Assembly: GCF_004010195.1 (NCBI RefSeq)
Contig: NC_057718.1
Coordinates: 10,274,009-10,306,758 of the forward strand
DNA: 32,750 nt
Direction of reading: 5' to 3'
Origin: Chiloscyllium plagiosum
Lineage: Eukaryota
A program made the position numbers and the translations under genes. This document shows, in pieces, positions 194 through 28,251 of this stretch; position 1 is the stretch's first letter, and every line of letters begins with the position of its first letter. Under the pieces are notes generated by a model that worked only from the letters and a program-made list of their open reading frames with translations, was not told where the DNA came from and did no database searches.

Positions 194-362
194 GAGGAGA
201 AAGTGAGGTCTGCAGATGCTGGAGATCAAAGTTGAAACTTCATTGCTGGAACAGCACAGCAGGTCAGGAATTCCTGAAGAAGGGCCTGTGCCCGAAACGT
301 CGAATCTCCTGTTTCCTGGATGCTGCCTGACCTGCTGTGCTGTTCCAGCAATAAAGTTTCAA
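194..362. mobile_element. PLE pLTR-derived inverted-repeat element with one hammerhead motif
   Basis: Arms gttgaaact..ttgctggaacagcacagcaggtcagg / cctgacctgctgtgctgttccagcaa..agtttcaac. 11-bp TSD caattcacctc at 183-193 and 363-373. Confidence 0.85.
274..301 (+). ncRNA. Minimal type I hammerhead ribozyme motif (intact core)
   Basis: CUGAAGA-A-GGGC(CUGU)GCCC-GAAA-CG-UC. Stem I attc/gaat. Palindromic ACGU stem III. Confidence 0.8.
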
Positions 363-1344
363 CAATTCACCTCACCTACCTATCTTTGGACTGTGGGGGG
401 GGAAACAGGAACACCCAGTGGAAACCCACGCAGACACGGAGAGGGTGTGCAAACTCCACACAGACAGTCGCCTGAAGCTGGATTCAAACCCAGGTCCCTG
501 GTGCTACGAGGCAGCAGTGCTAACCACTGAGTGACTATATATATATGCACAGATGTTTTTCAGGAATAAAGTATATTTTTGAATTTATGGAGAGGGACAG
601 TGTGTCCTCCTGATTAAACATCTCCAAGGAGATGTCTAACAAGCACAGGTCATGGTGAGGACACAGACCCCTCAGAAAGAGGACACTATGTCACAGGTCT
701 GACACAGCATCGAGGGGATAATTGGATAATTTCTTGTTGTGTCAGGTGCCTGCTCTCTCCCTCTCCACAGCCAAGTTAGCATCTTCATGCTATCCTACTA
801 TGACCAGAATTGTCTCTTTCAGGGAAGTGAGAGGATACAGCTGATGGACACCAGTCTAATTCCAGTCTGTACTGGGAATGACTTCCCATCATGGCTTCAT
901 GAGTGTTCTACTTAATCAGAGAAGCAATCGTGTTCCTGTAAAGTTTTAAACCGTCCTCCAGGCTCTCATACCGTAACATCAAAAAGAAAAATGTCTTACA
1001 AGATGCAGGCTGGTCAGTTAAGGTGCCTTATATCTAAGAACAACTATTCTGCTCTCTGGAGATATCAGAACCAATCCCTATTAAAGTGTCACATGTTTGT
1101 CTGCGTTAAGTGTTTCACCATCACAATCAAGGATGATGCAAACCTTAGATAATTGACTGTCCACCCAGCAGGATTGGCAGAGATGTGTAATAGGATTTGC
1201 CTTTACCTTGGCAGAATTCAAATGGTGTAGCTTGGCTGAGAGTTTTTTTGGAATTTATTTAGGCAAGGGCAAGTGTAAATAATATGAATAAATGGTGTAC
1301 CTGCCATAACACAGTGGATAGTACTGTCACCACTAGGCAGACGT

Positions 1345-1850
1345 CACCCACCACCAGGTTATAGTCCAACCAGTTTCATATCATAGAATCTCCACAGTGT
1401 GGAAACAGACCATTTGACCCAACAAGTCCACACTAATCTTCTGAACAGCATCCCACCCAGACCCATCCCACTACCCTATCCATGTAACTCTGCATTTCCC
1501 ATGGCTACACATTCCTGGAAACTACGGGCAATTTAGCATGGCCAATGCACTCTAACCTGCACATTGTTGGATTGTGGGAGGAAACCAGACCACCCGGAAG
1601 AAACCCACGCAGACACGGGGAGAACATGCAAACTCCACACAGACACCCCAAGGGTGGAGTTGAACCCGGGTCCCTGGCGCCGTGAGGCAGCAGTGCGAAC
1701 CACTGAGCCACTGTGCCGCTCAAAGCCACCTGATGAAGGAGCAGTGGTCCAAAAGGTTGTGATTTCAAATAAATCCATTGGACTATAACCTGTTATTGTG
1801 TGACTTCTGACTTTGTCCACCACAGTCCAACACCAGCACCTCTGCATCAC
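1345..1850. mobile_element. Degenerate PLE palindrome (second family), split by a V-SINE
   Basis: caccaggttatagtccaa (~1351-1368) is inverted relative to ttggactataacctg (~1778-1792). Decayed HHR cctgatgaaggagcagtggtccaaaa near 1729-1754. Same family as 21162-21395. Confidence 0.7.
1377..1719 (-). mobile_element. HE1-type V-SINE, near full length
   Basis: gcggcacagtggctcagtggtt head, B-box gggttcaactcc, V-domain and CR1-type tail on the minus strand. Confidence 0.92.
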
Positions 1851-1894
1851 CACTGAATCTAAATCTGTACTTTCATTATCCTGGATATTGAAAT

Positions 1895-2217
1895 TAAGGC
1901 TGACATCATCAGAACTGTACTGAAGAGGTGCTACGCTGTCAGAAATGACACCTTTCAGGTGAGACTTTGAATTGAGGACTTGACTGCCCTCTCAAATAGA
2001 AATAACAGATCCCATAGCACTACTTTAAAGAAGTTAAGGTAATTTATTCTGGTTTCCTGGCCAATATTCGTCCCTTGATCAAAATTATTTCAGCATTATC
2101 ACTTACTGCATGCAGGAGATATCAATATTCAATCTGGCCAGGGCATTTCCTGCATTACGCTAACGACTGTAAAGAATCTTATCGTATGATTGTGACAGGT
2201 GCTGTATAAATGCAGTT
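1895..2217 (+). mobile_element. Old DeuSINE (SacSINE1/AmnSINE1-like) remnant
   Basis: Deu-domain-like text gtactgaagaggtgct..gtcagaaatgacacctttcaggtgagac..agatcccatagcact..cctggccaatatt and tail ggtgctgtataaatgca. Confidence 0.7.
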
Positions 2218-3310
2218 TTACGGAGTTTTTTTTAACCTTTTGACATACTTTTAGTTTGGCGTTAAGTTTGATATAACTAGCAAACATTATAAAATTGAAA
2301 AGGATTGATCTGAAAACACTGAGTCCTCCAAGGAGTCTAACCTGAGAAGTAAACCTACCTTTTCCACTTCTACAGATTGACAGATCTTTGTATTTTTAAT
2401 ATTGCTTACTTTGTTCCTCCTCTTTATTTTCCTTGCTCCTGACATTTTAAATCTGGTTTTAAAAAAACCTGCTTCAGTGCAGAATTGAAAACGGCACTGA
2501 CCTAAAATTAAAATGTGTCTGGTATGTTTGGATGCTGGTGAGCAGGCATTTTACTGTGTGCAAGGAGCTGATCTCAATCTGCCTGGCCAGAGTACAATGG
2601 GGAGCCAGCAGTTTAACTTGAGTCTGCAAATGCTTAATTGCTCCTTCCTTACTCTATATCCTTTGATGCCAAATCATGATTTAAAAAATTATGAATCACA
2701 ATCTTAATGTGACCCCCAGCATCATTTGGTCAAGACAATTCCTGCATTCTAACAGCCTTTGAATGAAGAAGTATTTTGTGGTGATCTGAACTTCATTTAC
2801 ATTCTTTCCTTTCATTTACACACCAAGTGGGTAATGGCTTCACTCTATTTACCTGAGTAAAACCTTTAGTAATTGAAGCACCTCAATTAGATCATGCATT
2901 ACTCCTCTGGATTAAAGGGAGTGCAAATCAGGTTTATGTAAATCACCCTCAAAATAACCTTTGAAATCCCCTTAGCATCGAACTAGTGAAGATGCATTGG
3001 AACCACATTGCACTGAGAGAAGTCTTTTCTCCTGAAGATCGGTATCTAACAGAATTACTTCTGCTTTACACGACACCCTGCCTTAGAACAAGCTGTCAGA
3101 AGAAAATCTCACAGTATGCTGTCATCCTGAAATGGCGGAGAAAGATATTAAACCACCAATTCCCCAAGGCTTTACGTTTTCATATTGGCAATTACTGTAG
3201 CTCACAACTGGATTAATGCCCTATGATTTAACAGTTCTTGCATTCTCATAATTGCCCATGAAGAAAACTTGAGGGTGCCTTCTTGTGGTGCATTAGACTA
3301 GTAGACCACA

Positions 3311-4110
3311 TCAGGAGCACCTGATGCAATAAACTAAGTTGGAACAGAGCAGGTGAACCTCTGTCTCACCTGGAAGGACTGTTTGGGGCTCTGGATGGAG
3401 GTGAGGGGGGGTGTACTGGCAGGTTTTGCATTTTTTCTGGTTGCAGAGGAAGGTACCTGGGGGTTCGGTGGTGGGGATGGCGTGAACTAAGGACTGGAGA
3501 AGGCAGCGGTCCTTGTGGTTGGCTGAGAGGTGTGGATGTTCTTGGTGGTGGGGTCTATTTGGAGTTGGCAGCAATGTTTGAGGATGGTGTGTTGGATGCA
3601 GAGACTGGTGGGGTGGTAGGGAAGGACGAAGGGTCTCTGTCCTTATTGCTTTGGGAGGGAGGAGGATTTAGAGTGATGGAATGGGGAATGGTGCTGGTGC
3701 AGAGGAGGGTTGTCTAGGTGACGGAGGGAGGAAAAGCGCGTTGCTCAAAATAGGTGGACATCTGGAATGTTCGTGAGTGGAATGTCTCCTCGTCTGAGCA
3801 GATGCAGCGGAGGCGCAGGAATTGGGAGAATGGGATAGAGTGTTTGCAGGATACTGGGTGGGAGGAAGTGTAGTCCAGGTAGTTATGGGAGTCTGTAGTT
3901 TTGTAGTAGATGTCTGTTAGATGTAAATGGTGAAATCGAAAAAGGGGAGGGAGGTGTCCAAAGTGAGGTAAGTTAACTTGAAGGCAGGGTGGAAGTTATG
4001 GGTGAAGTCGATGAACTGCTCCAGGTCAGCCTGGGTGCAGGACGCTGCGCCGATGCTGAAGAGTTGGTGTACAGTGCCTGTGTAGGTGCTGAAGAGGGAC
4101 TGTTCAATAT
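3311..4110 (-). mobile_element. Penelope-like element fragment (RT C-terminus plus start of GIY-YIG endonuclease), pseudogenised
   Basis: Translated PGTFLCNQKKCKTCQY and SNLVYCIRCS (PLE zinc-binding linker and GIY-YIG start). Upstream ctacaaaactacagactcccataactacctggactacacttcctcccac encodes YKxTDSHNYLDYTSSH. Confidence 0.88.
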
Positions 4111-4325
4111 AGCCCCTAAGATGTTAGAATGGCAGTTCTATGCTTTAAATCTTGCGAGAGGGAAGGGATGGCAATATCTCCAGCCAAGTGGGACTAATTC
4201 AGTTTAAGAAACCTGGTCAGCATAAGTGAGATGGGCCCATGGGCCTGTTTCCATGCTGTGTGAAGCTATCCCTCTGGGTGGAGGGGAATGTATAGGTGGT
4301 GGTGTTCCCATGTATCTGTTATGAT

Positions 4326-4651
4326 GATTAGATTAGATTCCCTACAGAATGGAAATAGGCCGCTCGGCCCAATAATCCATACCGACCCTCCGAAGAGCAA
4401 TCCACCCAGACACATTCCCCTACATTAACCCCTGACTAATGCACCTTACACTACGGGCCATTTTAGCATGGTCAATTCACCTGACTTGCACAGCTTTGGA
4501 CTGTGGGAGGAAAACGGAGCACCTGGAGGAAACCCACGCAGACACGGGGAGAATGTGCAAACTCCACATAGACAGTTGCCCGAGGGAGGAATTGAACCCA
4601 GGTCTCTGCTGCTGTGAGGCAGCAGTGCTAACCACTGAGCCACCGTGCCAC
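4326..4651 (-). mobile_element. HE1-type V-SINE, full length, present only in copy A
   Basis: ggcacggtggctcagtggttagcac head, V-domain and (aatct)n tail. Absent at the homologous site near 7625. Confidence 0.92.
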
Positions 4652-4659
4652 CCCAATAT

Positions 4660-5360
4660 AGTCATTCATCATGGAAATAGGCCCTTCAGCCCATCTAGTT
4701 TATACCTACCAGATTTCCCAAACTGAACTAGTTCCATTTGCCTGTGTTTGATCCCTCTAAACCTTTCCTATCCATGTGCCTGTCCAAGTATCTTTTAAAA
4801 GTTGTAACTGTGCCTGCATCTACCACTTCCTCTGGCAATTCATTCCATATACACATCACTGTTTATGTGTAAAAGTTGGCCATCAGGACCCTTTTATATC
4901 TTTCCCCTCTTTTCATAAACTTACGTCCTTAGTTTTGAACACTCCTGCCCTGAGGAAAAGACCTTGTCTACTCACCCTGTCCATGCCCCTCTGATTTTAT
5001 AAACCCCAATAAGGTCACCCCTCAGCCTCCACCGCTCCAGGGATAAAAGTCCCAGCTTCTCTACTTAACTCAAACCCTCCAAACCCAGTAACATTCATGT
5101 AAATATTTTCTGCATCCTTTCCAATTTAATAATATCCTTCTTATAGCACGGCAATCAGAATTAAAAAGAGTACTTCAAAAGTGGCCTCCCCTGTACAGCT
5201 GCAACAAGACATCCCAACTCCTGCACTCAATGCTCTGACCAATGAAGGCAAGTATGGCAAAAACCTTCTTAACCAGCCTGTTTACCCCTGATTACACTTT
5301 CTAGGAACTATGTATCTGCACCCCTAGATCTCTCTGTTCGGTAACACTCCTCAGGGCCTG
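4660..5360 (-). mobile_element. CR1/HER1-type LINE 3' fragment
   Basis: Degraded RT C-terminus and 3' tail ...gggctgaagggcctatttccatg. Confidence 0.85.
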
Positions 5361-5977
5361 AGCTGTGTCCTTCCAGGTAATTACAAAAGTAATTTCTATC
5401 TAACTTTTCACACTTAGGTATTCTAAAAAAGCAATGCGATTAAGCAAGGTTACATGAAAAGCTCCAAGACAGTTTTTTTTTATTTAATGTGTCTGATCAT
5501 TTACTCTTCTGTTATCACACACAAGGCCCAATTATGGACTCAATGCAGCTGCCTTCCCCTATAAATAAATATTGCACAAATTCTGTTTCAAGGGAAACAA
5601 AACTTTAAACAGCTTCCTGTCGAGTGAAACTGACAGCACTAACGTATTCCTTTTACTATTTCAGGGTGGTGACTAAATATAATGTTTATTCTAAATATAT
5701 GCCTAATGGCCAACACTTGCTCTCTGCCACATATCCTGACCATTGACCATAACTTATAGCAGCTGTCTCTGTCCTCCCGCACTCTTTGATAACACAATTA
5801 GGGGAAATGGTGGTACAATGGTAATGTCACAGCACCAGTGTGATCCAGAGGGTCACTCTCTGCCAACATGGGCTCTCATCTCACCATGCCATTGGTGAAA
5901 CTTAAATGCAATTATTACCTCTGGATTACAAAGCCACCGTCTGTGACGGTGACCACAATTGATTATCATAAGATGGA

Positions 5978-6198
5978 GCTGGAAATGTGTTGCTGGAAAA
6001 GCGCAGCAGGTCAGGCAGCATCCAGGGAACAGGAGAATCGACGTTTTGGGCATAAGCCCTTCTTCAGGAATGATTCCTGAAGAAGGGCTTATGCCCGAAA
6101 CGTCGATTCTCCTGTTCCCTGGATGCTGCCTGACCTGCTGCGCTTTTCCAGCAACACATTTCCAGCCCTGATCTCCAGCATCTGCAGACCTCACTTTC
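5978..6198. mobile_element. PLE pLTR palindrome with HHR motifs on both arms
   Basis: ~93-bp near-perfect inverted arms centred near 6072. 15-bp TSD ttatcataagatgga at 5963-5977 and 6199-6213. Empty site in copy A'. Confidence 0.92.
6077..6104 (+). ncRNA. Minimal type I hammerhead ribozyme motif (intact core)
   Basis: CUGAAGA-A-GGGC(UUAU)GCCC-GAAA-CG-UC. The mirror copy on the minus strand (6040-6067) has GAAA>AAAA. Confidence 0.8.
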
Positions 6199-6242
6199 TT
6201 ATCATAAGATGGAATCTGGTTCACTGATATCCTTTAAGGAAG

Positions 6243-6466
6243 CTGAAAAATGTGTTGCTGGAAAAGCGCACCAGGTCAGGCAGCATCCAAGGAGCAGGAG
6301 AATCGACATTTCGGGCATAAGCCCTTCTTCAGGAATAATGCCCGTTCGGGGCTTATGCCCAAAACGTCGATTCTCCTGCTCCTTGGATGCTGCCTGACCT
6401 GCTGCGCTTTTCCAGCAACACATTTTTCAGCTCTGATCTCCAGCATCTGCAGTCCTCACTTTCTCC
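6243..6466. mobile_element. PLE pLTR palindrome; HHR motif on minus strand at 6305-6332
   Basis: Inverted arms. 15-bp TSD tatccttta(a/g)ggaag at 6228-6242 and 6467-6481. Empty site in copy A'. Confidence 0.9.
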
Positions 6467-6749: not shown

Positions 6750-6880
6750 ATCTGCAGCTCCCCACACACCCACCTCTAGTCCTGAAGAAGGGTTATATCT
6801 GAAATGTCCACTTCGATTAGATTAGATTCCTTACAGTCTGGGAACAGGCCATTTGGCCCAACCAGTCCACACCGACCCTC
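6750..6880. mobile_element. PLE 3' fragment with degenerate HHR (+, ~6782-6808) followed by a V-SINE/CR1 tail (-)
   Basis: cctgaagaagggttatatctgaaatgtc, then gattagattagattcc..aacaggccatttggcccaa. Confidence 0.6.
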
Positions 6881-6881
6881 A

Positions 6882-10797: not shown

Positions 10798-11023
10798 AGG
10801 AGATAGTGAGGACTACAAATGCTGGAGAAGTCAGAGTCGATAAAGTGTGGTGTTGGAAAAAGCACAGCGGATCAGGCAGCATCTGAGGAGCAAGAGAGTC
10901 AACATTTCGGATGTAACTCTTCCCCAGTCCTGATGAAGGGTTACACCCGAAACATTGACTCTCTTGCTCCTCAGATGCTGCCTGACCTGCTGTGCTTTTT
11001 CCAGTGCCACACTTAATCGACTT
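10798..11023. mobile_element. PLE pLTR palindrome (third variant) with HHR at 10930-10956 (+)
   Basis: Inverted arms. CUGAUGA-A-GGGU(UAC)ACCC-GAAA-CA-UU, stem I agtc/gact. Approximate TSD ttaaagg(a/g)aca(a/g)tt at 10784-10797 and 11024-11037. Confidence 0.85.
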
Positions 11024-11249: not shown

Positions 11250-11815
11250 TCTCTGTGGCTACTTCCTTTAATATCCTGGGATACATCCCATTAGATCCTG
11301 GGCACCTAATGTCCTTAGATCCATTTGTTTCCCTCGTACTATTTCTCTGGTAATAGATGTTGTATTTATATCCTGCCCTTTTCCCCCTTAAATATTTAAT
11401 AACCTTGGAATACTTTTAGTGTCTTCTACTGTGAAGACCGATGCAAAGTATTCATTGAGCTCCTCTGCCATTTCCTGGTTTCCCATCATTATTTCCTCAC
11501 CTTCATTTCCTAAATGTTAATTTTGGCTTCTCTCTGCCTTTTTATAATTTTAAACAATCAGTCTGGGTATTCGTTGCAAGTTTAACCTCAAAGTTTATTT
11601 TCTTCCCTTTTTTTAGCTGTCTTTTGCTGCTTCTTAAAACCTACCCAATCCTTTGGATACCATTAATTTTTGCTACATTGTATGTTTTGTTTTCTTTCAA
11701 TCTAATGCTATCCTTAACTCCCTGGTTAATCATAGTTGGCCTATCACCTTCCTAAAATCCTTCTTCCTCATTGAAACATGTCTTTGCTGTGAGCCCTGCA
11801 TAATTTAGTTAAACA
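11250..11815 (-). mobile_element. Degraded CR1 ORF2 fragment (EN-RT linker)
   Basis: Minus strand encodes MAEELNEYFASVFT and GPx..MYPRILKEVA-like segments. Confidence 0.75.
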
Positions 11816-13105
11816 TGATGAAGGTAGAGCAGTGGATGTGGTGTATATGGATATTAGCAAGGCATTTGATAAGGTTCCCCATGGTAGGCTCATTCAGAAA
11901 GTAAGGATGCAAGGGATACAGGGAAATCTGGCTGTCTGGAAACAGAATTGGCTGGCCCATAGAAGACAGAGAGTGGTAATAAATAGAACGTATTCAGCCT
12001 GGAGCTCGGTGACCAGTGGTGTTTCACAGGGATCAGTTCTAGGACCACTGCTCTTTCTAATTTTTATAAATGGCTTGGATGAGGAAGTAAAAGAGTGGGT
12101 TAGTAAGTTGGCCATTGACGCAAAGGTTGATGGAGATGTGGATAGTGTAAAGGGATGTTATAGGTTGCAACGGGGCATTGACAGGATGCAGAAACGGGCT
12201 GCGAAGTAGCAGATGGAGTTCAACCTGGGAAAGTGTGAAGTGATTCATTTTGGAAGGTGGAATTTGAATGCAGATTACAGGGTTAAAGGCAGGATTCTTG
12301 GCTTTATGGAGGAACAGGGGGATCTTGGGGTCCACGTCCATAGATGCTTCAAAGTTGCCACCAAAGTTGATAGGGTTGTTAAGAAAGCGTATAGTGTGTT
12401 GGCTTTCATTAGCAGGGGGATTGAGTTTAAGAGCCACAAGGTTATGCTGCAGCTCCATAAAGCCCTGATTAAACAATGTTTGAAATATTGTGTTCAGTTC
12501 TGGTCGCCTCATTATAGGAAGTATGTTGAAAGCTTTAGAGCAGGTGCAGAGGAAATTTACCAGGATGCTGCGTGAACAGGAGGGCCTGTCTTATGAAGAA
12601 AAGTTGAGGGAGCTAAGTCCTTTTTCATTGAAGTAAAGAAGAATGAGAGGTTACTTGATGATTAGATTCCCTACAGTGTGGAAACAGGCCCTTCGGCCCA
12701 ATAAGTCCACACCGACCCTCCGAAGAGTAACCCACCCCCCCCTCTGACTAATGCACCTAACACTATGGACAATTTAGCATGACTAGAGATGTACAAGATG
12801 ATAAGAGGCATAGATACAGAGACTTTCTCCCAGGGCGGAAATGGCTATCATGAGGGGTATAATATTAAGGTGATTGGAGGAAGGTTTAGAGGAGATGTCA
12901 GAAGTAGGTTATTTATATAGAGTGGTGGGTGTGTGGAATGCACTGCCAGCAATGGTAGTAGAGTCAGATACATTAGGGACATTGGATAGGCACATGGATG
13001 ATAATAAAATGTAGGGTATGTAGATTAGTTTTGATCTTACAGTAGGGTAAAATGTTGGCCCAACATCGAGGGCCGAAGGGCCTGTACTATGCTGTACTGT
13101 TCTAT
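11816..13105 (+). mobile_element. CR1-clade LINE 3' portion (RT, disrupted), with a V-SINE tail inserted at 12660-12781
   Basis: DVVYMDISKAFDKVPH, GVSQGSVLGPLLFLIFIN, MEFNLGKCEVIHFG, YCVQFWSPHY. Tail gagggccgaagggcctgtact. Confidence 0.93.
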
Positions 13106-15732: not shown

Positions 15733-15835
15733 GCTCCAAGAAGAGTCATATCAGACCCATAATGTTAACTTGGTTTCTCTCTCCACAGATGCTGCCAGAC
15801 TTGCTGAGTTTCTTCACCATTGTCTGTGTTTGTAA
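15733..15835 (+). mobile_element. Old PLE 3' terminus with decayed HHR
   Basis: aagaagagtcatatcagacccataatgttaact followed by ctctctccacagatgctgccagacttgctgag. Related to the 28221-28251 family. Confidence 0.55.
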
Positions 15836-16817: not shown

Positions 16818-18125
16818 TGTATTTGGAAAGGCAAGGACTGATTCGGGATAGTCAACATGCCTTTGTGCATGGGAAATCATGTCTCACAAACTTGATTGAG
16901 TTTTTTGAAGAAGTAACAAAGAGGATTGATGAGGGCAGAGCGGTAGACGTGATCTATATGGACTTCAGTAAGGCATTCTACAAGGTTCCCCATGGAGACT
17001 GGTTAGCACGGTTAGATCTCACGGAATACAGGGAGAACTAGCCATTTGGACACAGAACTGGCTCAAAGGTAGAAGACAGAGGGTGGTGGTGGAAGGTTGT
17101 TTTTCAGACTGGAGGTCTGTGAATAGTGGACCGGTCCACTAGTGCCACAAGGATCAGTCTCTACTTTTTGTCATTTATATAAATGATTTGGATGTTAGCA
17201 TAAGAGGTAAAGTTAGTAAGTTTGCAAATGACACCAAAATTGGAGGTGTAGTGGACAGCGAAGAGGGTTACCTCAGATTACAACGGGATCTTGATCAGAT
17301 GGGCCAATGCGCTGAGAAGTGGCAGATGGAGATTAATTCAGATAAATGCGAGGTGCTGCATTTTGGGAAAGCAAATCTTAGCAGGACTTATACACTTACT
17401 GGTAAGGTCTTAGGGAGTGTTGCTGAACAAAGAGACCTTGGAGTGCAGGTTCATAGCTCCTTGAAAGTGGAGTCGCAAGTAGATAGGACAGTGAAGAAGG
17501 GATTTAGTATGCTTTCTTTTATTGGTCAGAGTGTTGAGTACAGGAGTTGGGAGGTCATGTTGTGGCTGTACAGGTCATTGGTTAGGCCACTGTTGGAATA
17601 TTGCGTGCAATTCTGGTCTCCTTGCTATTGGGAGTATGTTGTGAAATTTAAAAGGGTTAAGAAAAGATTTACAAGGATGTTGCCAGGGTTGAAGGATTTG
17701 AGCTATAAGGAGAGGCTGAACAGACTGGTGCTGTTTTCCCTGGAGTGTCGGAGACTAAGGGGTGACTTTATAGAGGTTTACAAAATTATGAGGAGCATGG
17801 ATAGGATAAATAGACAAAGTATTTTCCCTGGGGTCAGGGAGTCCAGAACTAGACTAGGGTGAGAGGGGAAAGATATAAAAGAGACCTAAGGGGCAACTTT
17901 TTCACACAGAGGGTGGTTTGTGTATAGAATGAGCTGCCAGAGGATGTGGTGGAGGCTGGTACAATTGCAACATTTAAAGGGAATTTGGATGGGTATATGA
18001 ATAGGAAGGGTTTGGAGATATATGGACCAGTTGCTGGCAGGTGGGACTAGATTGGGTTGGGATATCATGGACGGGTTGGACCAAAGTGTCTGTTTCCATG
18101 CTGTACATCTCTATGACTCTCTGAC
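16818..18125 (+). mobile_element. CR1/HER1-type LINE (RT, frameshifted), nested in an older CR1 3' end (~16610-16817 and ~18127-18280)
   Basis: SQHAFVHGKSCLTNLIEFFEEVT..DFSKAF, KVSKFANDTKIGG, LEYCVQFWSP. (atgactct)n tail. Confidence 0.94.
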
Positions 18126-18569: not shown

Positions 18570-20250
18570 CAATAGACAATAGACAATAGACAATAGGTGC
18601 AGGAGTAGGCCATTCAGCCCTTCGAGCCTACACTGCCATTCAACATGATCATGGCTGATCATTCCTAATCAGTATCCCGTTCCTGCCTTATCTCCATAAC
18701 CCTTGACTCCACTATCTTTGAGAGCTCTATCCAACTCTGTCTTAAATGAATCCAGAGACTGGGCCTCCACTGCCCTCTGGGGCAGAGCATTCCACACAGC
18801 CACCACTCTCTGGGTGAAGAAGTTTCTCCTTATCTCTGTCCTAAATGGTCTACTCCGTATTTTTAAGCTGTGTCCTCTGGTTCGGCACTCACCCATCAGG
18901 GGCTCATTCCAGTGTAGGTGGGACTTCTACAAACAGAATGGTCTACACCTGAACCAGAGGGGTAACAATATCTTGGGGGGAAAATTGCTCATGCTATTCA
19001 GGAGGGTCACCTAATTTGTCCAGGTCACCCTGTAATCTCCTACCATCCTCCTCACTTTTCACCCTGCCACCCAGCTTTGTATCATCAGCAAATTTGCTAA
19101 TGTTATTGCTGATACCATCTTCTATATCATTAACATATATTGTAAAAAGCTGCGGTCCCAGCACGGATCCCTGCGGTACCCCACTGGTCACTGCCTGCCA
19201 TTCCGAAATGGAGCCGTTTATCACTACTCTTTGTTTCCTATCAGCCAACCAACTTTCAATCCAATCTAGTACTTTGCCCCCAATACCATGCGCCCTAATT
19301 TTACTCACTAACCTCCAATGTGGGACCTTATCAAAAGCTTTCTGAAGTCCAAAACACTACATCCACTGGATCTCCCTCATCCATCTTCAGAGTCACATCC
19401 TCAAAAAATTCAAGATTAGTCAAGCATGATTTCCCCTTCATAAATCCATGCTGACTCTGTCCTATCCTGTTACTACTATCCAGATGTGCCGTAATTTCAT
19501 CCTTTATAATAGACTCCAGCATCTTTCCCACCACTGAGGTCAGTCTAACTGGTCTATAATTTCCTGCTTTCTCTCTCCCACCTTTCTTAAAAAGTGGTAT
19601 AACATTAGCCACCCTCCAATCCTCAGGAGCCGACCCTGAATCTATTGAACTTTGGAAAATAATCACCAACGCATCCACGATTTCCTTCAGTACCCTGGGA
19701 TGCAGACCATCAGGCCCCGGAATCTTATCAACCTTCAGACCTAACAGTCTCTCCAACACCAAATCCTGGCAAATATAAATTCCCTTAAGTTCAGGTCCTT
19801 CAGCCACTGTTACTTCAGGGAGATTGCTTGTGTCTTCCCCAGTGAACACAGATCAGAAGTACCCATTTAATTCCTCTGCCATTTCTTTTTTCCCCGTAAT
19901 ATATTCCCCTGTTTCTGTCTTCAAAGGCCCAATTTTTGTCCTAACCATTTTTTTGCCTTGCACATACCTAAAAAAGCTTTTACTATCCTCCTTTATATTA
20001 TTGGCCAATTTACCTTCGTACCTCATTTTTCCTCTGCGTATTTCCTTCTTAGTAATCCCCTGTTGCTCTTTAAAAGCTTCCCAGGCCTCCGTTTTCCCCC
20101 TTATCTTTGCTATGTTGTACTTTTTCTCTTTTAACTTTATATGTTTCTTAACTTCCCTCATCAGCCATGGCTGCCCATGCCTCCTCCTGGGATCTTTCTT
20201 CCTTTTAGGAATGAACTGATCCTGCAACTTCTGCATTATACACAGAAATA
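18570..20250 (-). mobile_element. Young CR1-clade LINE (ORF2 linker plus RT), 5'-truncated and internally rearranged, (aatagac)n tail; inserted into an old LINE endonuclease remnant (~18500-18566 and ~20251-20430, +)
   Basis: GNYRPVRLTSVVGKMLE, GVPQGSVLGPQLFTIYVND, SKFADDTKLGG, RRNFFTQRVV. Host reads DLILTN..SIGKSD and WHYHHAKWNRF. Confidence 0.94.
18900..19009 (+). mobile_element. CR1 ORF1 SGNH-esterase C-terminal fragment, opposite orientation to the flanking ORF2
   Basis: GSFQCRWDFYKQNGLHLNQRGNNILGGK resembles the DGLHLN block V of CR1 ORF1p esterase. Confidence 0.75.
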
Positions 20251-20750: not shown

Positions 20751-20881
20751 CATTCCTGTTGAAGGGCTTATGTCCGAAATGTTGATTCACCTGCTCCTCG
20801 GATGCTGCCTGACCGGCAGTGCTTTTTCAGCGCCACACAGTCGACTCTGATCTCCGGCATCTGCAATCCTCACTTTCTCCT
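20751..20881 (+). mobile_element. Single PLE pLTR 3' terminus with degenerate HHR
   Basis: attcctgttgaagggcttatgtccgaaatgttga...gcatctgcaatcctcactttctcc. Possible TSD ta(a/g)ttgca. Confidence 0.75.
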
Positions 20882-21260
20882 AGTTGCATCTTCATACAGA
20901 TTTTGGTCGTGTTCTTGCTCTTGAAAACTTGTGAGAGTGAAATCCAGCTTTCTCAATGATCTCAAGGTCAGGCATTCATTGAGGTTGGTCCTCTCCCTAT
21001 TTCCTGACATGAAACATTATTCAACCAGGGATGATATATTCAGGTCCATATTCAGGTGTCATACAACACCTTACACTTTGCTGGTATCAGTGAAGTAGCT
21101 AACAAATCATTCAGACGTGTTGATAGTGTTATGAAGCTGTAAAGTGAACTGTACCTTTAAGTAGTCATGATTCGGAGATGCCGGTGTTGGACTGGGGTGT
21201 ACAAAGTTAAAAATCACACAACACCAGGTTATAGTCCAACAGGTTTAATTGGAAGCACAT

Positions 21261-21289
21261 TAGCTTTCGGAGCGATGCTCCTTCATCAG
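21261..21289 (-). ncRNA. Minimal hammerhead motif (intact core, stem I mismatch)
   Basis: Minus strand reads cac-CUGAUGA-A-GGAGC(AUC)GCUCC-GAAA-GC-UA-aug. Confidence 0.65.
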
Positions 21290-21309
21290 GTGATGAAGGT
21301 AACAATCAC

Positions 21310-21338
21310 CTGATGAAGGAGCGTCGCTCCGAAAGCTA
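21310..21338 (+). ncRNA. Minimal type I hammerhead ribozyme motif (intact)
   Basis: cac-CUGAUGA-A-GGAGC(GUC)GCUCC-GAAA-GC-UA-gug. Palindromic AGCU stem III, stem I cac/gug. Confidence 0.82.
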
Positions 21339-21463
21339 GTGTGCTTCCAATTAAACCTGTTGGACGATAACCTGGTGTGGTGTGATTTTTAACTTTGTAC
21401 CTTTAAGAGAGTTGAAGGACTTAGCAAGGACACAGAGTGCTGAAGAATTTAAAATGTAACACT

Positions 21464-21794: not shown

Positions 21795-22075
21795 GATAGA
21801 ATCATAGAGTTTTACAGTTAAGAAAATGATGATTCAGCCCATCATGTCCATGCTGGTCATCAAGTATCCATCCAATTCAATTGTCCGATATTTGGTCCAT
21901 TCCCTTGTATGCTATGGTGCATCAAGTGCTTGTCTGAATACTTCTTGAGGGTTCTCACCTCTGGCATCCTCTTAGGCAGTGAGTTCCAGATAGCCAACAG
22001 CCTCTGGGTGAAAGAGATTTTCCTTAAATCCCCACTACGCCTCCTGCCCATTACCTTAAATCTGATCCCACCAAT
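21795..22075 (-). mobile_element. Old CR1-type 3' end
   Basis: LRKISFTQRLLAIWNSLP, with tctatgattct tail. Confidence 0.8.
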
Positions 22076-23277
22076 TTACCTCATTATTAAGCAGAAAGGT
22101 TTACTCTAGAGCCAATGAGAACCCCGTGTCACCTCTTTTGAGAATGATTCATTGCATTTAAGTGGCCAACGATGGGTCTTCTCCTTGGATTAAGGACCAT
22201 TGGAGACAGAAATCCCCTCCTGCATTCCACCCCCACCTCCACCAATCCCAACTCCACCTCCCCTGCCAGTCCCAAAACAGGATCAATTGGAGGGGTCATA
22301 TCCAAGGCAAGGGCAGGGTAGAGTCTTTCTGTAGCTCCCACTTTCCCCAAAGCTGGGTCCCTCATACAAGACACTGGGTGCCATTGAACAAAGGATTTCA
22401 TCCCATCCATGCTCCTGGGAGCCCATATGTTCATGAGGTGTGCTATCTGGTTGCTCGGCAATTATTTCCTAATTGAAGTTCTCCATTAGCTTGTGGACAG
22501 GTGGTTTTGGGAAGGCTGCCTACCAATCATTAAGGCCCAGACTTAATAGGGGCAGAAGGGGGATCAACAGTGGCGCCCCACTGCAAACTTCGACCAAGGT
22601 CCTTGCATCCCATGGGCACATTCTTTTGAATTTAGCACTAGTTCTCTTTGTAGGCAACATTTATTGATGACCTGAGGTAGGCAGATGGGCTGGAAGGATT
22701 TTTTTGAACCTGATGCATCTGTGGAAGGTGGGTTCAACCTTTTGAGAAGGTTGACAATGACCTTATTCCTTCCTGGATGCGTGTTAATCCACAAATTTCC
22801 TACGTAGCTTTGGAAACCTGCGGCTATTTGGGAGGTATAATTTAACCCAAAATAACTTCACAAGAAGCAGATCATTTGGACATTAACTTCACTGTTCTTT
22901 TTAAAACCTCGCCGTGGCCAAAATTGAATTGTTTCCCTTCATTACAGCAATGACAATGTAGTTGACTCATAACTGTGTTCTGCAATGACCCGGCAAACTG
23001 CTCAGTTCAAGAGTCATTAGGGATGGGTAACAAATACTGGTCCCGCCAACAATGCCTACATCCCATAGAAGAGAATAAAGAAAGCACAACTATGTTCCAA
23101 CTGTGTTTACTGGACTTAGCAAAACATTTTGGAATGACCACAGGACCTGAAGATGCTTTATGAATGTATGTTTGTTGCTTATTTCATACATGGGAGCCCT
23201 AGAGAAAAGCTCGTGATGACACACATGAATTATTCTTAGCATAAAGAGACTAAGTGAGAACCTCCATGAACTCTGAA

Positions 23278-23598
23278 TGATAGATTCCCTACAGTGTGGA
23301 TGCAGGACATTCAGCCCATCAAGTCCACACTGACCCTCTGAAGAGCATCCTTCCGAGACCCACCCCATCCCAATAACCCTGTAATCCCATAGCTAACCCA
23401 CCCAGCTTGTATGTCCTCGGACACTACGGGGCAATTTAGCATGGAGAAAGTGAGGATTGCAGATGCAGATGCATGGGCAATCCACCTAGCCTGCACAGCT
23501 TTGGACTGTAGGAGGAAACCAGAACACCTGCAGACACAGGGAGACACATCATTTCAAAGCTGGGATCGAACCCGGGTCCCTGGCACTGTGAGTCACTG
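23278..23598 (-). mobile_element. HE1-type V-SINE, internally deleted, with a ~25-bp PLE 3'-tip insert near 23443-23470
   Basis: gggacccgggttcgatccc B-box and tail. Insert ggagaaagtgaggattgcagatgc flanked by gcatgg. Confidence 0.8.
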
Positions 23599-24613
23599 TG
23601 TCATTCACAAGGTGAGGAGGTTAAGGACACTTTAGTTATTGAAGGATGTTGACAAGGTGGTTAAAGAATCTCTCTGCCTTTTGATAGGACAGACCCATAA
23701 ATGAATGATGCAACAAATCCAAAAATGTGTGGGAACAAGAGGCAGTTATTTAGCTCCTTGAACCTTTTCTGACATTCAATGAGATCGATGCGATCATCAC
23801 TGAGAAATCACCACTTTCCCTATATCGCTCAACGCCTTCACTAACAAAAACCTACCTCAGAGTTCAAATTAACAACTGATCCAGTATCATTGGATTTGCA
23901 GAAGAGAGTTCCGAACTACAGTGTGTGTGTGAAAATATTCCCCAACATCATTTCTAAAAGCTTGACTCTGATCTGTGTCACTGCATCCTAAACTCCAAGT
24001 GGAGTTGACACCCGGATAAGATCAGCAATGATCATGTTAAATAGCGTAGTGAGCTCGAAGGACTAAATTAGCTAATTTCATTCCTATTCTTGTACACACT
24101 TCACAAACTCCACCCCATCCAAACCCTTAACACTATGACAGTCCCAGTCTATGTTTGAAAAGTTAAAATCTCCCACCATTACAACAGGCCATTCGGCCCT
24201 TCAGGTGTATGCCGATGCATTTTGCCCTTCCATAAGACAACTGTCTTCACTTATAGGATCTGTGTCCTTCTATTCCCTTGCTATTCATATATATGTCCAG
24301 GAGCTTCTTGAATGCTTGCTTCTAACTTTGAAAAGGGAATTGGATAGATACCAGGAAAGGAGAGAATCTGCATTGTCATGGGGAAGGGGCACGGAGTGGT
24401 ACTCATTGAAAATTTCTTTCAATCAGCCAGCACAGATAGCATGAACTGAAAAGTCATCTCCTGTTTTATATGGAGTTCCAATATTAAGATGGACAATCAG
24501 AATTGTACAGTACAGAAGATGCCCTTTTTTTATTTACTGCCATAAAGACACTACTACCTACACTTGTCCCATTTTCCAACACTAGGCCCGTGGCCTGGTA
24601 TGACATTTCAAGT

Positions 24614-24975
24614 AGGGTGAGGTGGGGGAAGGGGAAATGAGGAAACTGTTGAAGTCCACATTGATGCCCTGGGGTTTGTCCGGACTCAGGACTTTCCCCA
24701 TGACTTGTCCGGACTTGTCCTACCTGCCTATCTCCTTTTCCACCTATCCACTCCACCCTCTCCTCCCTGACCTATCACCTTCATCCGCTCCCCCACTCAC
24801 CCATTGTACTCTATGCTACTTTCTCCCCACCCTCACCCTCCTCTAGCTTATCTCTCCACGCTCCAGGCTCACTGCCTTTATTCCTGATGAAGGGCTTTTG
24901 CCCGAAACGTCGATTTCAAAGCTCCTTGGATCCTGCCTGAACTGCTGTGCTCTTCCAGCATCACTAATCCAGAAA
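24614..24975 (+). mobile_element. 5'-inverted PLE 3' end with intact HHR, inserted in an old CR1 tail
   Basis: Inverted ORF-end piece (minus strand QGINVDFNSFLISP), C-rich 3' UTR and pLTR. 14-bp TSD atgacatttcaagt at 24600-24613 and 24976-24989. Confidence 0.88.
24884..24911 (+). ncRNA. Minimal type I hammerhead ribozyme motif (intact core) in native PLE context
   Basis: CUGAUGA-A-GGGC(UUUU)GCCC-GAAA-CG-UC. Confidence 0.8.
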
Positions 24976-25231
24976 ATGACATTTCAAGTGCTCATCCAAG
25001 TTCCTTTAAAAGTTGTGAAGTTTCCTGTCTCAACTACCCTCCCAGACAATGCATTTCAGATCCTCTGGAGCAAATTACTTTTCCTCAAATGCCCTCAAAA
25101 CCTCCTGCCTTTCACTTTATAAGTGTGCCCCCTCGTCCTTGACCCTCTGACTAAGTGTAACAATGGTTTTCTGTGTCCCTCATAATCTTATACCTCTCAA
25201 TCAGATTCCCCACCTTAACCTTCTCTACTTC

Positions 25232-25625
25232 AAGGTCAGAAGTCACATGACACAAGGTTACAGTCCAACAGGCTTACTTGAAATCACGAGTTTTCGGAGC
25301 GCTGCTCCTTTGTCAGGTAAAGTGAAGAAAAGCAAACAGGCACAAAATGTATAGGCATTGAGATCAAAAAATCATACAAATTCTGTGAGTGGAGTGTCTG
25401 TAGGCTGAATAATAGGTCTCTGCAGGTGATCAAAATTGTCAGACAGTGTGAGTAAAGTCTCAACAGCTGAATAACAAGTGAAGGGATATAATCCAATTAA
25501 ATGAGGCAGACAGATATTTACAAAAAATTAAAACTAAAATGGTGCTGGAGACAAACCAAACGGCTGGAATAACGTAATAGGTATAAAAGTCATATGCCGA
25601 GGGTCTAACCAAAGTAGCAAGTAAT
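25232..25625 (-). mobile_element. PLE 3' region (second family) with degenerate HHR
   Basis: Minus strand cctgacaaaggagcagcgctccgaaaactcgtg...ctgttggactgtaacct. Confidence 0.75.
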
Positions 25626-25880
25626 CTACAGCATTATCTACTCCAACGAAAACAACCCAAGCTTTATGCATCCCTAATGTTTGTGTGTTCTGATCATTGA
25701 GTGAGGTTCATTACATTTTTTAACCAGTAAGACAGCTGGATATAAAGGGAGTGGTTTGAGTCCAGTGAGGTATTTCGGTAAGTCACATTCATGATTAAGG
25801 TATAAAAGACTAAAGCCCAATGATGGAAAGGGCAGGGAAAAGGGTGTGTCGAGCTCCCTCTAATGAATAATCTCCCTCTC

Positions 25881-26358
25881 ATAGATGTAGTGAAACTTGA
25901 AAGGGTTCAGAAAAGATTTACAAGGATGTTGCCAGGGTTGGAGGATTTGAGCTTTAGAGAGAGGTTGAATAAGCTAGGGCTGTTTTCCCTGGAGCGTTGG
26001 AGGCTGAGGGGACCTTATAGAGGTTTACAAAATCATGAGGGACATGGATCGGATAAATAGACAAAGTCTTTTCCCTGGGGTGGGTGAGTCCAGAACTAGA
26101 GGGCATAGGTTTAAGGTGAGAGGGGAAAGATATAAAAGAGACTAAGGGGCAACTTTTCACGCAGAGGATGGTACTTGTATGGAATGAGCTGCCAAATTGC
26201 AACATTTAAAAGGCATCTGAAAGAATATATGAATAGGAAGAATTTGGGGGAATATGGGCCGGGTGCTGGCAGGTGGGACGAGATTGTGTTGGGATATCTG
26301 GTCGGCATGGATGGGTTGGAGGGTCTGTTTCCATGCTGTACATCTGTATGACCCGATG
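25881..26358 (+). mobile_element. CR1/HER1-type LINE 3' end
   Basis: DVVKLERVQKRFTRMLPGLEDLSFRERLNKLGLFSLE. Confidence 0.92.
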
Positions 26359-26609
26359 ATTCAGTGCAAAAGTGAAAATTAGATTTGATTTGGCAGATCT
26401 TTGTTGGTGGTTGAGACCTCATCTCCAGCCCCAGTGAGAGGGGGAAAGGGTCATCCAGGGTGGATTTGGTTGCATCATATAAATTAAGTTTAAAATGTTG
26501 ACTTTTTTTTAATATGTTAGCTTTGAATACACAAGGTAGACATCAAAAGACACATTTAATAGGAAATAAAACAATTGTGAAGTAAGTTTGAAAGAAAGGC
26601 TGAAAAATC

Positions 26610-27155
26610 TTTTTGGATGTCCCAATGAAGTAATTTATGAAGTGGAGTCCTTGTTAAAATCTACAAAATGTGGCAACCCATTTGCACACAGCAAGTTCCC
26701 ACAGACAGCATTGAAATAAGTACTCAATCATTCAATTTAGGAGCTGAAAATGTGTTGCTGGAAAAGCGCAGCAGGTCAGGCAGCATCCAAGGAGCAGGTT
26801 TCAGGCATGAGCCTTTCTTCAGGAATGAGGAATGAGGACACTCTCCTAATTCCTGAAGACGGGCTCATGCCCGAAACATCGAATCTCCTGCTCCTTGGAT
26901 GCTGCCTGACCTGCTGCGCTTTTCCAGCAACACATTTTCAGCTCTGATCTCCAGCATCTGCAGACCTCACTTTTTCCCATTCAATTTAGGAGTCAATTTG
27001 ACTGATAAAGATTGGCCAATATATCAGAGACAACAATGAACAATCTCTTTGAAATGTTGCTGTGGGATCTCCTTCAGTTCAGGTAATGAATTTCCAGCTA
27101 AGGTGGAAGCTACAGGTTTTTAAGGACAGGAGTGCAAGTAATGGACAGCACTTTG
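26610..27155 (-). mobile_element. Old DeuSINE remnant hosting a PLE palindrome
   Basis: tttgcacacagcaagttcccacagacagca..gataaagattggcca..gctgtgggatct..ggacagcact. Confidence 0.6.
26744..26977. mobile_element. PLE pLTR palindrome with HHR (+, ~26853-26880)
   Basis: CUGAAGA-C-GGGC(UCAU)GCCC-GAAA-CA-UC, stem I attc/gaat. 15-bp TSD cattcaatttaggag at 26729-26743 and 26978-26992. Confidence 0.9.
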
Positions 27156-27240
27156 TAGGAGCAAATTACTGCGGATGTGGGAAACTGGACTAAACAAAAA
27201 AAAATGCTGGAATTCACAGTGAGTCAGGCAGCATGGAGAG

Positions 27241-28201
27241 TGCTATACATTTACTATAAACCAACCGACTCCCACAGCTATCTAGACTACACCTCCTCCC
27301 ACCCTGCCCCCTGTAAAAACGCCATCCCATATTCCCAATTCCTTCGTCTCCACCGCATCTGCTCTCAGGAGGACCAGTTCCAATATCGTACAACCCAGAT
27401 GGCCTCCTTCTTCAAAGACCACAATTTCCCCCCAGACGTGATCGACGATGCCCTCCACCGCATCTCTTCCACTTCCCGCTCCTCCGCCTTTGAGCCCCGC
27501 CCCTCCAATCGCCACCAGGACAGAACCCCACTGGCCCTCACCTACCACCCCACNNNNNNNNNNNNNNNNNNNNNNNNNNNNNNNNNNNNNNNNNNNNNNN
27601 NNNNNNNNNNNNNNNNNNNNNNNNNNNNNNNNNNNNNNNNNNNNNNNNNNNNNNNNNNNNNNNNNNNNNNNNNNNNNNNNNNNNNNNNNNNNNNNNNNNN
27701 NNNNNNNNNNNNNNNNNNNNNNNNNNNNNNNNNNNNNNNNNNNNNNNNNNNNNNNNNNNNNNNNNNNNNNNNNNNNNNNNNNNNNNNNNNNNNNNNNNNN
27801 NNNNNNNNNNNNNNNNNNNNNNNNNNNNNNNNNNNNNNNNNNNNNNNNNNNNNNNNNNNNNNNNNNNNNNNNNNNNNNNNNNNNNNNNNNNNNNNNNNNN
27901 NNNNNNNNNNNNNNNNNNNNNNNNNNNNNNNNNNNNNNNNNNNNNNTCCTAACCTGCAATCTTCTTCCTGACCTCTCCGCCCCCACCCCCACTCCGGCCT
28001 ATCACCCTCACCTTGACCTCCTTCCACCTATCGCATTTCCAACGCCCCTCCCCCAAGTCCCTCCTCCCTACCTTTTATCTTAGCCTGCTGTGCACACTTT
28101 CCTCATTCCTGAAAAAGGGCTCATGCCCGAAACATCGATTCTCCTGATCCTTGGATGCTGCCTGACCTGCTGCGCTCTTCCAGCAACACATTTTCAGCAC
28201 T
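27241..28201 (+). mobile_element. Young 5'-truncated Penelope-like element (RT C-terminus, gap, 3' UTR, pLTR with CUGAAAA-variant HHR near 28109-28136)
   Basis: YYKPTDSHSYLDYTSSHPAPCKNAIPYSQFLRLHRICS..PLALTYHP. pLTR matches the palindrome arms. Candidate TSD catggagag at 27232-27240 and 28202-28210. Confidence 0.92.
27554..27946. other. Assembly gap (393 N)
   Basis: Run of n. Confidence 0.99.
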
Positions 28202-28220
28202 CATGGAGAGACAGCAAGCT

Positions 28221-28251
28221 AATGTTTCGAGTCTAGATGACCGTTCATCAG
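28221..28251 (-). ncRNA. Degenerate hammerhead motif of a fourth PLE family (host element ~27157-27240 and ~28202-28320, minus strand)
   Basis: agct-CUGAUGA-A-cgGUC(AUCUA)GACuc-GAAA-CA-UU-agct. 4-bp stem I. Confidence 0.6.

Follow-up and report, generated by a model that had tools for sequence, protein, structure and literature searches.

Putative minimal type I hammerheads of Penelope-like elements are abundant in the genome of the shark Chiloscyllium plagiosum

Penelope-like elements (PLEs) have been reported in all surveyed vertebrate lineages, including the elephant shark (Chalopin et al. 2015), and minimal hammerhead motifs associated with them have been described (Cervera & de la Pena 2014, PMC4209133). 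The published motifs occur in families with compensatory changes and have one nucleotide between A9 and position 10.1, a G10.1-C11.1 pair and a palindromic 15.2-16.2; about 4,000 copies were given for the coelacanth and about 9,000 for Xenopus. They cut weakly as dimers (PMC4209133), or only with protein (PMC11167929). In PAc, the Poseidon-type PLE of Anolis carolinensis (Frangieh et al. 2024, PMC11167929), reverse transcription starts within the RNA at two adjacent sites, 111-118 nt beyond the beginning of stem II, and the distance between the sites corresponds to a 30-40 bp 'tail'. Non-LTR retrozymes, which are non-coding, carry type I hammerheads and are thought to derive from the pseudo-LTRs (pLTRs) of PLEs, were present in the single chondrichthyan genome covered by a preprint (Li, Clavereau & Pollet 2026). 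Here we analyze motifs of this kind in a stretch of 32,750 nucleotides from the shark Chiloscyllium plagiosum (assembly GCF_004010195.1, contig NC_057718.1, positions 10,274,009 to 10,306,758 of the forward strand), hereafter the window, which belongs to contig C9 in an assembly of 3.56 Gb and 101,977 contigs. The motifs are very probably minimal type I hammerheads of shark PLEs, with putative cleavage activity, and most of the window's copies would be by-products of PLE retrotransposition.

The motif consists of a helix I strand, CUGANGA, one extra nucleotide, a stem II of 4-5 bp closed by a loop of 3-5 nt, GAA, A-N-N-U, H and the second helix I strand. A hammerhead descriptor that asks for the core, a stem II of at least 3 bp and U-H found nine sites in the window; 300 dinucleotide shuffles gave 0.14 sites on average and never more than 2. 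CTGANGA alone matched 40 times (24.35 +/- 4.56 expected; maximum 35 in 100 shuffles). The nine sites have C3 at 274, 6077, 10930, 21310, 24884 and 26853 on the plus strand and at 6332, 21289 and 28251 on the minus strand, and the conserved core (C3 U4 G5 A6 N7 G8 A9, G12 A13 A14, A15.1, U16.1, H17) is intact at each of them. There is no helix III hairpin; 15.1-16.1 and the palindromic 15.2-16.2, through which two copies could together build helix III, are present. The initial annotation had listed a hammerhead layout at these sites, and this is borne out: all 17 coordinates it named were checked by reading, its minus-strand positions 6305, 21261 and 28221 are the copies with C3 at 6332, 21289 and 28251, and the cuts it predicted 3' of 21338 and 3' of 24911 fall at H17 in our re-parse (A21338 and C24911). 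About 20 motif copies are recognized in the window once decayed ones are included. Self-comparison showed that the sites are not independent, being copies of a few repeat families.

None of the four published marks was imposed by the descriptor of the 2014 study (PMC4209133), and all four are found in the shark motifs. The spacer between A9 and stem II is exactly one nucleotide in 66 of 68 descriptor matches from 260,672 bases. We also scanned for the core letters only, with no pairing demanded, in the window and ten arbitrarily placed 10-kb loci (132,750 bases). This returned 22 matches, and in 17 of them a single extra nucleotide is followed immediately by four or more uninterrupted stem II pairs; the remainder are two decayed copies of families D/F (see below) and three chance-like matches. 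Across the 22, the extra nucleotide is A in 19, helix III is ACGT in 7, AGCT in 3, ACAT in 6 and ATGT in 4, and position H17 holds 12 C, 6 T and 4 A, but no G. A palindromic stem III (ACGU or AGCU), with ACAU and AUGU as forms left by CpG decay, had been proposed earlier and is seen in these matches. Of 12 aligned copies, 11 have G-C at 10.1-11.1 and one has A-U. Judged by sequence, these are minimal type I hammerhead motifs with the published marks of PLE minimal hammerheads.

The window contains families A (subgroups A1 and A2, distinguished by loop II and flanks), A', C and D, and a fifth family, F, which is absent from the window, surfaced during sampling of copies through their downstream sequence. 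Family A, with 88,166 genome matches, has stem II GGGC/GCCC, helix III ACGU, H17 C and a helix I of AUUC with GAAU or, more often, GAUU. Family A' has stem II GGGU/ACCC and helix I AGUC/GACU. Family C (18,788 matches) combines stem II GGAGC/GCUCC with helix III AGCU, H17 A and helix I CAC/GUG, and family D (65 matches) stem II GGGUC/GACYC with helix I AGCU/AGCU. Helix I, of about 4-5 bp in the minimal type I form, has four pairs in ATTC/GAAT, AGTC/GACT and AGCT/AGCT, and three in CAC/GTG. Family F (3,234 matches) resembles D apart from its core, UUGACAA: among the first 100 matches listed, TTGACAA occurs 91 times, CTGACAA 5 times, TTGATAA 3 times and CTGATAA once, and G8 in none.

To evaluate base pairing between lineages we counted pairs in 12 hand-picked natural copies from lineages A1, A2, A', D, E and F. 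Family C was left out because MAFFT misaligned its 3' half by one column. Paired cells amount to 93.1%, compared with 85.7% in shuffles, and none of 500 shuffles reaches the observed value; 5 of 12 pairs change on both sides, a number reached by 7 of 500 shuffles, and the covariation score is 0.285 compared with 0.167 (0 of 500). When the partner was slid by 1-3 columns as a control, 19-41% of cells paired and 0-1 pairs changed on both sides. The claim of several families with covarying stems therefore holds in the pair count across lineages. The double changes are located in three of the four helix I pairs, in one stem II pair and in the core pair, where C3-G8 is replaced by U3-A8; by eye, the stem II of family C (G-C, G-C, A-U, G-C, C-G) adds further double changes relative to family A. 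The U3-A8 core variant has been reported in Schistosoma PLEs (PMC4209133). The swap would be difficult to account for if positions 3 and 8 did not interact as in the hammerhead core. From these compensatory changes between lineages, including U3-A8 for C3-G8, we infer that the ribozyme fold has probably been kept in the propagating lineages. That the motif is selected and that it acts as a dimer, as the initial annotation had it, are likewise suggestions.

The connection to PLEs is based on what lies upstream of the motif. Copies of A2 extend variably far in this direction, with a graded 5' truncation, and are therefore taken as 5'-truncated retroposed copies of an RNA in the hammerhead sense. 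The longest reach reading frames with a reverse transcriptase (RT) segment (YIDD), a Cys/His cluster and a GIY-YIG motif. The decayed frames of two such loci (L034/L044) score 27.0 for Pfam RVT_1 (cut-off 29.6) and 22.5 for GIY-YIG (cut-off 22.6). Their relative P0001, a protein of 902 aa that aligns to 74% of the query at 41% identity (E 1.6e-41), is above both cut-offs, scoring 42.4 bits for RVT_1 over residues 394-575 and 32.4 bits for GIY-YIG over residues 806-886. An RT followed by a C-terminal GIY-YIG domain is the architecture that defines endonuclease-bearing PLEs and, as far as domain matches tell, it is the architecture of the shark frames. The named proteins nearest to the retroelement frames of the window are from the shark Chiloscyllium punctatum.

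Using P0001 in tblastn, we found PLE frames on the same strand and 240-330 nt upstream of hammerheads in three A2 loci (L033, L039 and L043), one D locus (L057) and one F locus (L064). For A1 the link lies within the window: the frame at 27195-27554 corresponds to P0001 residues 590-709 (tblastn E 9.7e-21) and is followed by a run of N at 27554-27946 and by a copy at 27952-28201 that contains a motif at 28103-28142. The run places 393 N between the PLE frame fragment and its 3' hammerhead copy. The PLE origin put forward in the initial annotation is accordingly direct for four of five families (A1, A2, D and F), and does not extend to family C, which has no open reading frame link so far. One locus (L044) contains two adjacent PLE copies that are only 75% alike in a check for pLTR tandems; candidate stretches for complete copies read N. 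Similarly, a locus picked from the listed open frames of up to 991 aa (L069) reads 2,224 N, so that the listed long open frames may be N runs and not intact genes. A scan of the genome with Pfam GIY-YIG gave one weak match among 150 scored of 14,403 candidates, and PDB sequence searches with the RT and endonuclease fragments gave no matches. A reading frame starting in loop II, as in Anolis, was looked for and found no support.

Most copies are terminal fragments of 90-130 nt and not pLTRs of complete elements. For family A, 3' ends were sampled in 30 strict copies taken from the initial 0.8 Mb of contig C1; four of these copies served as references and were classified by reading. The copies end at 88-99 nt after C3 in 16 cases, at 124-127 nt in 12 and elsewhere in two. 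Families C, D and F have the same two end sites, 32-35 nt apart, and the long site lies about 117-119 nt past the start of stem II. The 5' ends were sampled in 68 arms anchored solely on downstream sequence. Relative to C3, 13 of the 68 begin at -5 to -2 and 18 at -8 to +5; 19 run further upstream, a class inflated by the loci picked for long A2 copies, and the remaining arms stop within the motif or are without it. By reading, the 17 arms scored as lacking the hammerhead part are mostly other families, internal deletions and misprojected inverted arms, and one junction (in L025) lies near the cut site. Copying of the RNA into complementary DNA (cDNA) thus often halts at the hammerhead's 5' edge, and cleavage is not what makes the insertion ends.

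Insertions in the window lie between target site duplications (TSDs) of 9-15 bp, at 183/363, 5963/6199, 6228/6467, 21151/21397, 24600/24976 and 26729/26978. In about half of the units, another arm in inverted orientation is attached head-to-head at the edge of the hammerhead; in these, one arm is complete and the other starts at a variable inner point. Adjacent inverted 5'-truncated copies are described as typical of PLEs (Craig et al. 2021), and the Anolis enzyme primes from both target strands in vitro (PMC11167929). The head-to-head arm could result from snap-back of the cDNA at the RNA 5' end or from priming on both target strands.

A scheme consistent with these ends would begin with a parent element in which the motif lies about 240-330 nt downstream of the RT/GIY-YIG frame. 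Reverse transcription would start internally in the RNA, either about 90 or about 125 nt past C3, a step taken from Anolis PAc, pass through the uncleaved hammerhead, and very often halt within a few bases of its 5' edge. The product would be inserted between target duplications of 9-15 bp, often with a head-to-head inverted second arm, and the inserted copies would then decay neutrally, mainly at CpG.

Genome-wide, strict patterns for the four families with counts above found 110,253 intact-core motifs, and the reversed-pattern controls all gave zero. Counts were made by patterns; a whole-genome DNA search with a family A copy returned no matches, very common words being skipped in that search. 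In 100 kb of arbitrary sequence, a covariance model (CM) seeded with family A found 12 motifs at E < 0.001, and missed family C, while BLAST found 18 family A arms covering about 1.8 kb after exclusion of 3 of 21 rows that matched only the flank of the query. By very rough extrapolation there would be several hundred thousand copies, or roughly 2% of the genome. The dense spread claimed for the motif is confirmed as high copy number. It is attributed to retrotransposition, with copies that decay mostly at CpG, and not to selection on each copy.

A tentative extension, which we consider possible but doubtful, is that the 90-130 nt module from hammerhead to tail is itself a self-propagating parasite of PLEs, comparable to a short interspersed nuclear element (SINE). 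In that case the RNA 5' end, whether a start or a processing site, would lie about 4 nt upstream of C3, and the module would hold all that the PLE enzyme needs for recognition and priming. If true, this would explain the spread to such a share of the 3.56 Gb.

Several results weigh against the interpretation of the motifs as PLE hammerheads kept for their fold. The rows for the covariation count were chosen by us, with family C omitted. In 12 family D copies examined by reading, A at 10.1 faces U in 7 and C in 5, and within-family variation therefore looks like neutral decay; the commonest helix I in family A, ATTC/GATT, forms only three of four pairs, with a U-U mismatch. Rfam gave no match to a hammerhead in the window at the gathering score and none at E up to 10. 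This miss is expected, because the motif has no helix III hairpin. The Rfam hammerhead models are type I, II, III, HH9 and HH10. For family C, the 1.2 kb upstream contain no reading frame in one locus (L070), and two others (L015 and L046) also showed none. Among the 68 arms there is no cluster of copies that start at H17, and motif-bearing insertions span H17, so the RNA that was copied must have been uncut there. There is also no pile of read ends at 21338 or 24911, which is a weak test given 3'-biased polyA single-cell reads from about 2% of the run. Finally, head-to-head transcripts form in silico a near-perfect duplex of about 90 bp (-168 to -200 kcal/mol). Such a duplex is predicted to outcompete the ribozyme fold, and a head-to-head transcript would then not be a hammerhead. 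For single motifs, monomers at 274, 6077 and 21310 fold in silico with helix I and stem II at -9 to -11 kcal/mol, and dimer cofolds are ambiguous. The raw polyA reads cover the repeats on both strands, and almost all stem from other copies, since 97% of those placed on the window run on into unlike sequence.

An alternative explanation is that the CUGANGA-hairpin-GAAA block is kept for a non-catalytic job, as an RNA fold or a binding site of the RT protein, its hammerhead likeness being vestigial. In the Anolis PLE, mutating the ribozyme left insertion in vitro unaffected, cutting by the ribozyme required protein, and the cut site coincided with neither starts nor ends of RNA-seq reads (PMC11167929); Schistosoma minimal hammerheads cleaved poorly in vitro (PMC4209133). 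That all shark insertions copy uncleaved RNA and that no reads end at the predicted sites also agree with this explanation. A mere protein-binding hairpin, however, does not predict replacement of the catalytic-core pair C3-G8 by U3-A8, an H17 that is never G, a palindromic 15.2-16.2, or retention of G12-A13-A14 across lineages with differing flanks. We therefore regard a purely non-catalytic role as unlikely and prefer hammerheads of PLEs.

It is much less probable that the short copies are SINEs mobilized by long interspersed nuclear elements (LINEs) of the CR1/L2-like type. CR1/L2-like RT fragments are everywhere, with three in the window and others in most loci. Against this, copies of A1, A2, D and F continue on the same strand from PLE RT/GIY-YIG frames, the two alternative 3' ends, with their spacing of 32-35 nt, are characteristic of PLEs, as are the head-to-head arms, and the copies have no 3' sequence in common with the CR1-like fragments. 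The three window fragments, at 11793-12209 (+), 17143-17862 (+) and 19331-19852 (-), had been candidates for PLE frames and were rejected as CR1/L2-like by sequence and relatives. This LINE is very abundant, and related fragments are present in most of the 3-kb loci sampled.

Least credible of all is that the inverted-repeat units are foldback or miniature inverted-repeat (MITE-type) DNA transposons, or else hairpin genes resembling those of microRNAs: units that form perfect hairpins and have target duplications do exist, and three inverted repeats have sub-threshold Rfam microRNA-family matches, but copies with a single arm are frequent, a complete arm is joined to one whose inner end varies, 5' truncation is graded, target duplications vary from 9 to 15 bp, and the microRNA matches are far below gathering scores and on both strands, as for any hairpin. 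In E-value mode Rfam returned only sub-threshold microRNA, snoRNA and lncRNA matches in the window, three of them on inverted repeats; mir-15, MIR904 and MIR845_1 are among them, on both strands, at 236-358, 6258-6415 and 21245-21354. The microRNA matches are head-to-head retroelement arms, and could mislead hairpin-based microRNA prediction here.

The individual copies of the window illustrate these patterns. An A1 head-to-head insertion occupies 198..361 (inverted arm about 198-268, forward arm 270-361) between copies of the TSD CAATTCACCTC at 183 and 363. Its intact hammerhead at 268-307 (+) has C3 at 274, H17 at C301, helix I ATTC/GAAT and helix III ACGT. Two further A1 head-to-head insertions lie close together. 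The one at 5978..6199, flanked by TTATCATAAGATGGA at 5963 and 6199, has a forward arm that reaches the long ('tail') end site, with hammerheads at 6034-6073 (-; C3 6067, G12 changed to A) and 6071-6110 (+; intact, H17 C6104). Arms are identical at insertion, and those of the 5978-6144 unit are still 98.2% identical over 167 nt, so this unit appears young; arm-to-arm divergence could date head-to-head insertions individually. The second, independent insertion at 6248..6466 is flanked by TATCCTTTA at 6228 and 6467, has its hammerhead at 6299-6338 (-; C3 6332, helix III ATGT), and its forward arm, from 6342-6374 onward, is partly deleted. Tandem Repeats Finder (TRF) reports one 'array' in the window, at 5983-6464 with a 265-nt unit and 1.8 copies, which is these two insertions, each with its own TSD. 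A fourth A1 head-to-head insertion, at 26744..26977 between CATTCAATTTAGGAG at 26729 and 26978, has a motif with a deletion in the inverted arm (26791-26828, -) and a hammerhead at 26847-26886 (+) in which the extra nucleotide is C, helix III ACAT and helix I ATTC/GAAT.

The A2 copy at 24615..24974 (+) comprises a 5'-truncated PLE 3' untranslated region and then an intact hammerhead (24878-24917, +; C3 24884, H17 C24911), stops at the short site and is flanked by ATGACATTTCAAGT at 24600 and 24976. The PLE copy at 27195..28201 (+) described above consists of the frame fragment, the N run, the 3' untranslated region and an A1 hammerhead with core CTGAAAA (G8 changed to A), and also stops at the short site. 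A family D hammerhead at 28215..28257 (-; C3 28251, helix I AGCT/AGCT, stem II type GGGUC/GACUC; CM E 0.074; listed at 10302232 of contig C9) adjoins the end of this copy; its G10.1 is changed to C, which breaks the innermost stem II pair. The family A' head-to-head copy at 10835..11004 has an inverted arm at 10842-10910 and a hammerhead at 10924-10962 (+) with GGGU/ACCC, helix I AGTC/GACT, helix III ACAT and H17 T. An older PLE reading-frame fragment at 3278..3917 (-) corresponds to residues 607-825 of P0001 (tblastn E 3.8e-17).

Decayed copies had been noted near 1729, 6040(-), 6782, 20755, 25290(-) and 28109, and are recognizable with one or a few core changes. The first, a family C copy at 1727..1816 (+; C3 1730), has GAAA changed to AAAA and a broken stem II, and begins at the ribozyme edge; an A'-like remnant at 6776..6814 (+) with a GGGT stem is truncated just past H17 (CM E 1.3e-5). 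The A1 copy at 20751..20878 (+) has core CTGTTGA (A6 changed to T) and helix III ATGT and reaches the long site (CM E 1.4e-9), and a family C copy at 25231..25318 (-) has core CTGACAA (G8 changed to A) and GAAAAC in place of GAAAGC. The copy proposed at 15735 is the weakest site: a D/F-like remnant at 15734..15795 (+) is recognized from its downstream TCTCTCTCCACAGATGCTGC, while the core is unrecognizable, which makes it the least certain part of the window. A fragment of the family A downstream region without the hammerhead part lies at 31396..31431 (-). A SINE-like repeat at about 1400-1728 (-), with a head that looks tRNA-like by eye, adjoins this family's copy C at its 5' edge (1727), where the family C copy starts; an ARAGORN tRNA scan of the window found no genes.

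The family C head-to-head insertion at 21162..21396 lies between copies of GTACCTTTAAG at 21151-21161 and 21397-21407. Its inverted arm has the tail and its forward arm stops at the short site; the minus hammerhead at 21255-21295 (C3 21289) has a decayed helix I, and the plus hammerhead at 21304-21344 is intact, with GGAGC/GCUCC, AGCT, H17 at A21338 and helix I CAC/GTG. In polyA reads, 293 and 206 reads pass into poly(A) directly after 21365 and 21370, and 145 have a T run before 21229; an ATTAAA lies in family C about 15-20 nt upstream of each. Transcripts may thus obtain polyadenylation sites from family C copies; the alternative is that A tails are present at these points in other copies of the genome. 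Elsewhere, family C has a long form in which about 420-470 nt upstream of the motif are common to L015 and L046, while L070 passes into CA-rich sequence. The long form starts beside CA-rich, microsatellite-like sequence (1100-1260 in L070; about 2080-2140 on the reverse strand in L015). A preference for microsatellite targets has been reported for relatives of PLEs (Craig et al. 2021). Family C motifs often occur as minus/plus pairs about 0.9-1.8 kb apart, for example on contig C1 at 12812783(-)/12813935(+), 2452784(-)/2453968(+) and 14217261(-)/14218370(+), and the pair in L046 is a large inverted repeat of the long form of about 0.5 kb.

In published work, cleavage by PLE hammerheads is weak or protein-assisted, and it is not needed during insertion in vitro. 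This genome is a very large natural record of insertion junctions. In those sampled, the RNA is uncut at the ribozyme site, there are two fixed internal starts as in the lizard element, and copies end regularly at the 5' edge of the ribozyme. If the 5'-edge pattern holds genome-wide, it would tie the motif to setting where the template's 5' end lies rather than to cutting. The U3-A8 lineage and the stem variants are ready-made natural mutants for cleavage assays, and annotators are likely to file such fragments as unknown repeats or as hairpin or microRNA candidates.

In comparison with the PLE minimal hammerheads of the 2014 text (PMC4209133), the shark motifs are alike in being type I without a helix III hairpin, with one nucleotide from A9 to 10.1, G10.1-C11.1 and a palindromic 15.2-16.2, in occurring as many families per genome with compensatory changes and a U3-A8 variant, and in forming close pairs on opposite strands while most copies are solitary and away from complete elements. 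They differ in host, the text naming fishes, coelacanth, Xenopus and reptiles and the present host being an elasmobranch, in number (110,253 or more motifs with an intact core, counted by four strict patterns), and in a stem II of 4-5 bp compared with 7-8 bp in Schistosoma. The two supplementary files of that paper that were searched contain no shark term, file 1 being outside the search, and with the same file outside its scope a literature search found no report of a PLE minimal hammerhead in elasmobranchs.

A second close parallel is PAc (PMC11167929). As in PAc, the hammerhead lies shortly upstream of an internal start of reverse transcription, two start sites give an optional 'tail', and uncleaved RNA is the template; several shark TSDs end in ATT (by reading, uncounted), the triplet that the PAc endonuclease prefers. 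The PAc frame begins at stem II, whereas in the shark copies sampled the motif lies 240-330 nt past the frame, and the sharp pile of 5' ends at the hammerhead edge is a feature of the shark copies that is not described for PAc. Retrozymes form head-to-tail arrays with a hammerhead in each unit and circular RNAs (Li, Clavereau & Pollet 2026), in contrast to the head-to-head copies of the shark window; the shark copies are not retrozymes in the defined sense, TRF having detected no head-to-tail array in the window. The Sm-alpha and Sj-alpha elements of schistosomes (PMC6765202) are, like the shark copies, short, very abundant, non-coding, retroposed and hammerhead-bearing, but they have a promoter and a full hammerhead, which makes tertiary contacts and works as a monomer, whereas the shark motif is of the minimal form. 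The PLE minimal hammerhead is thus already known as a kind and is here described in a host group for which we found no report. What goes beyond the texts compared is the scale, the sharp 5' boundary at the edge of the ribozyme and a vertebrate lineage with U3-A8.

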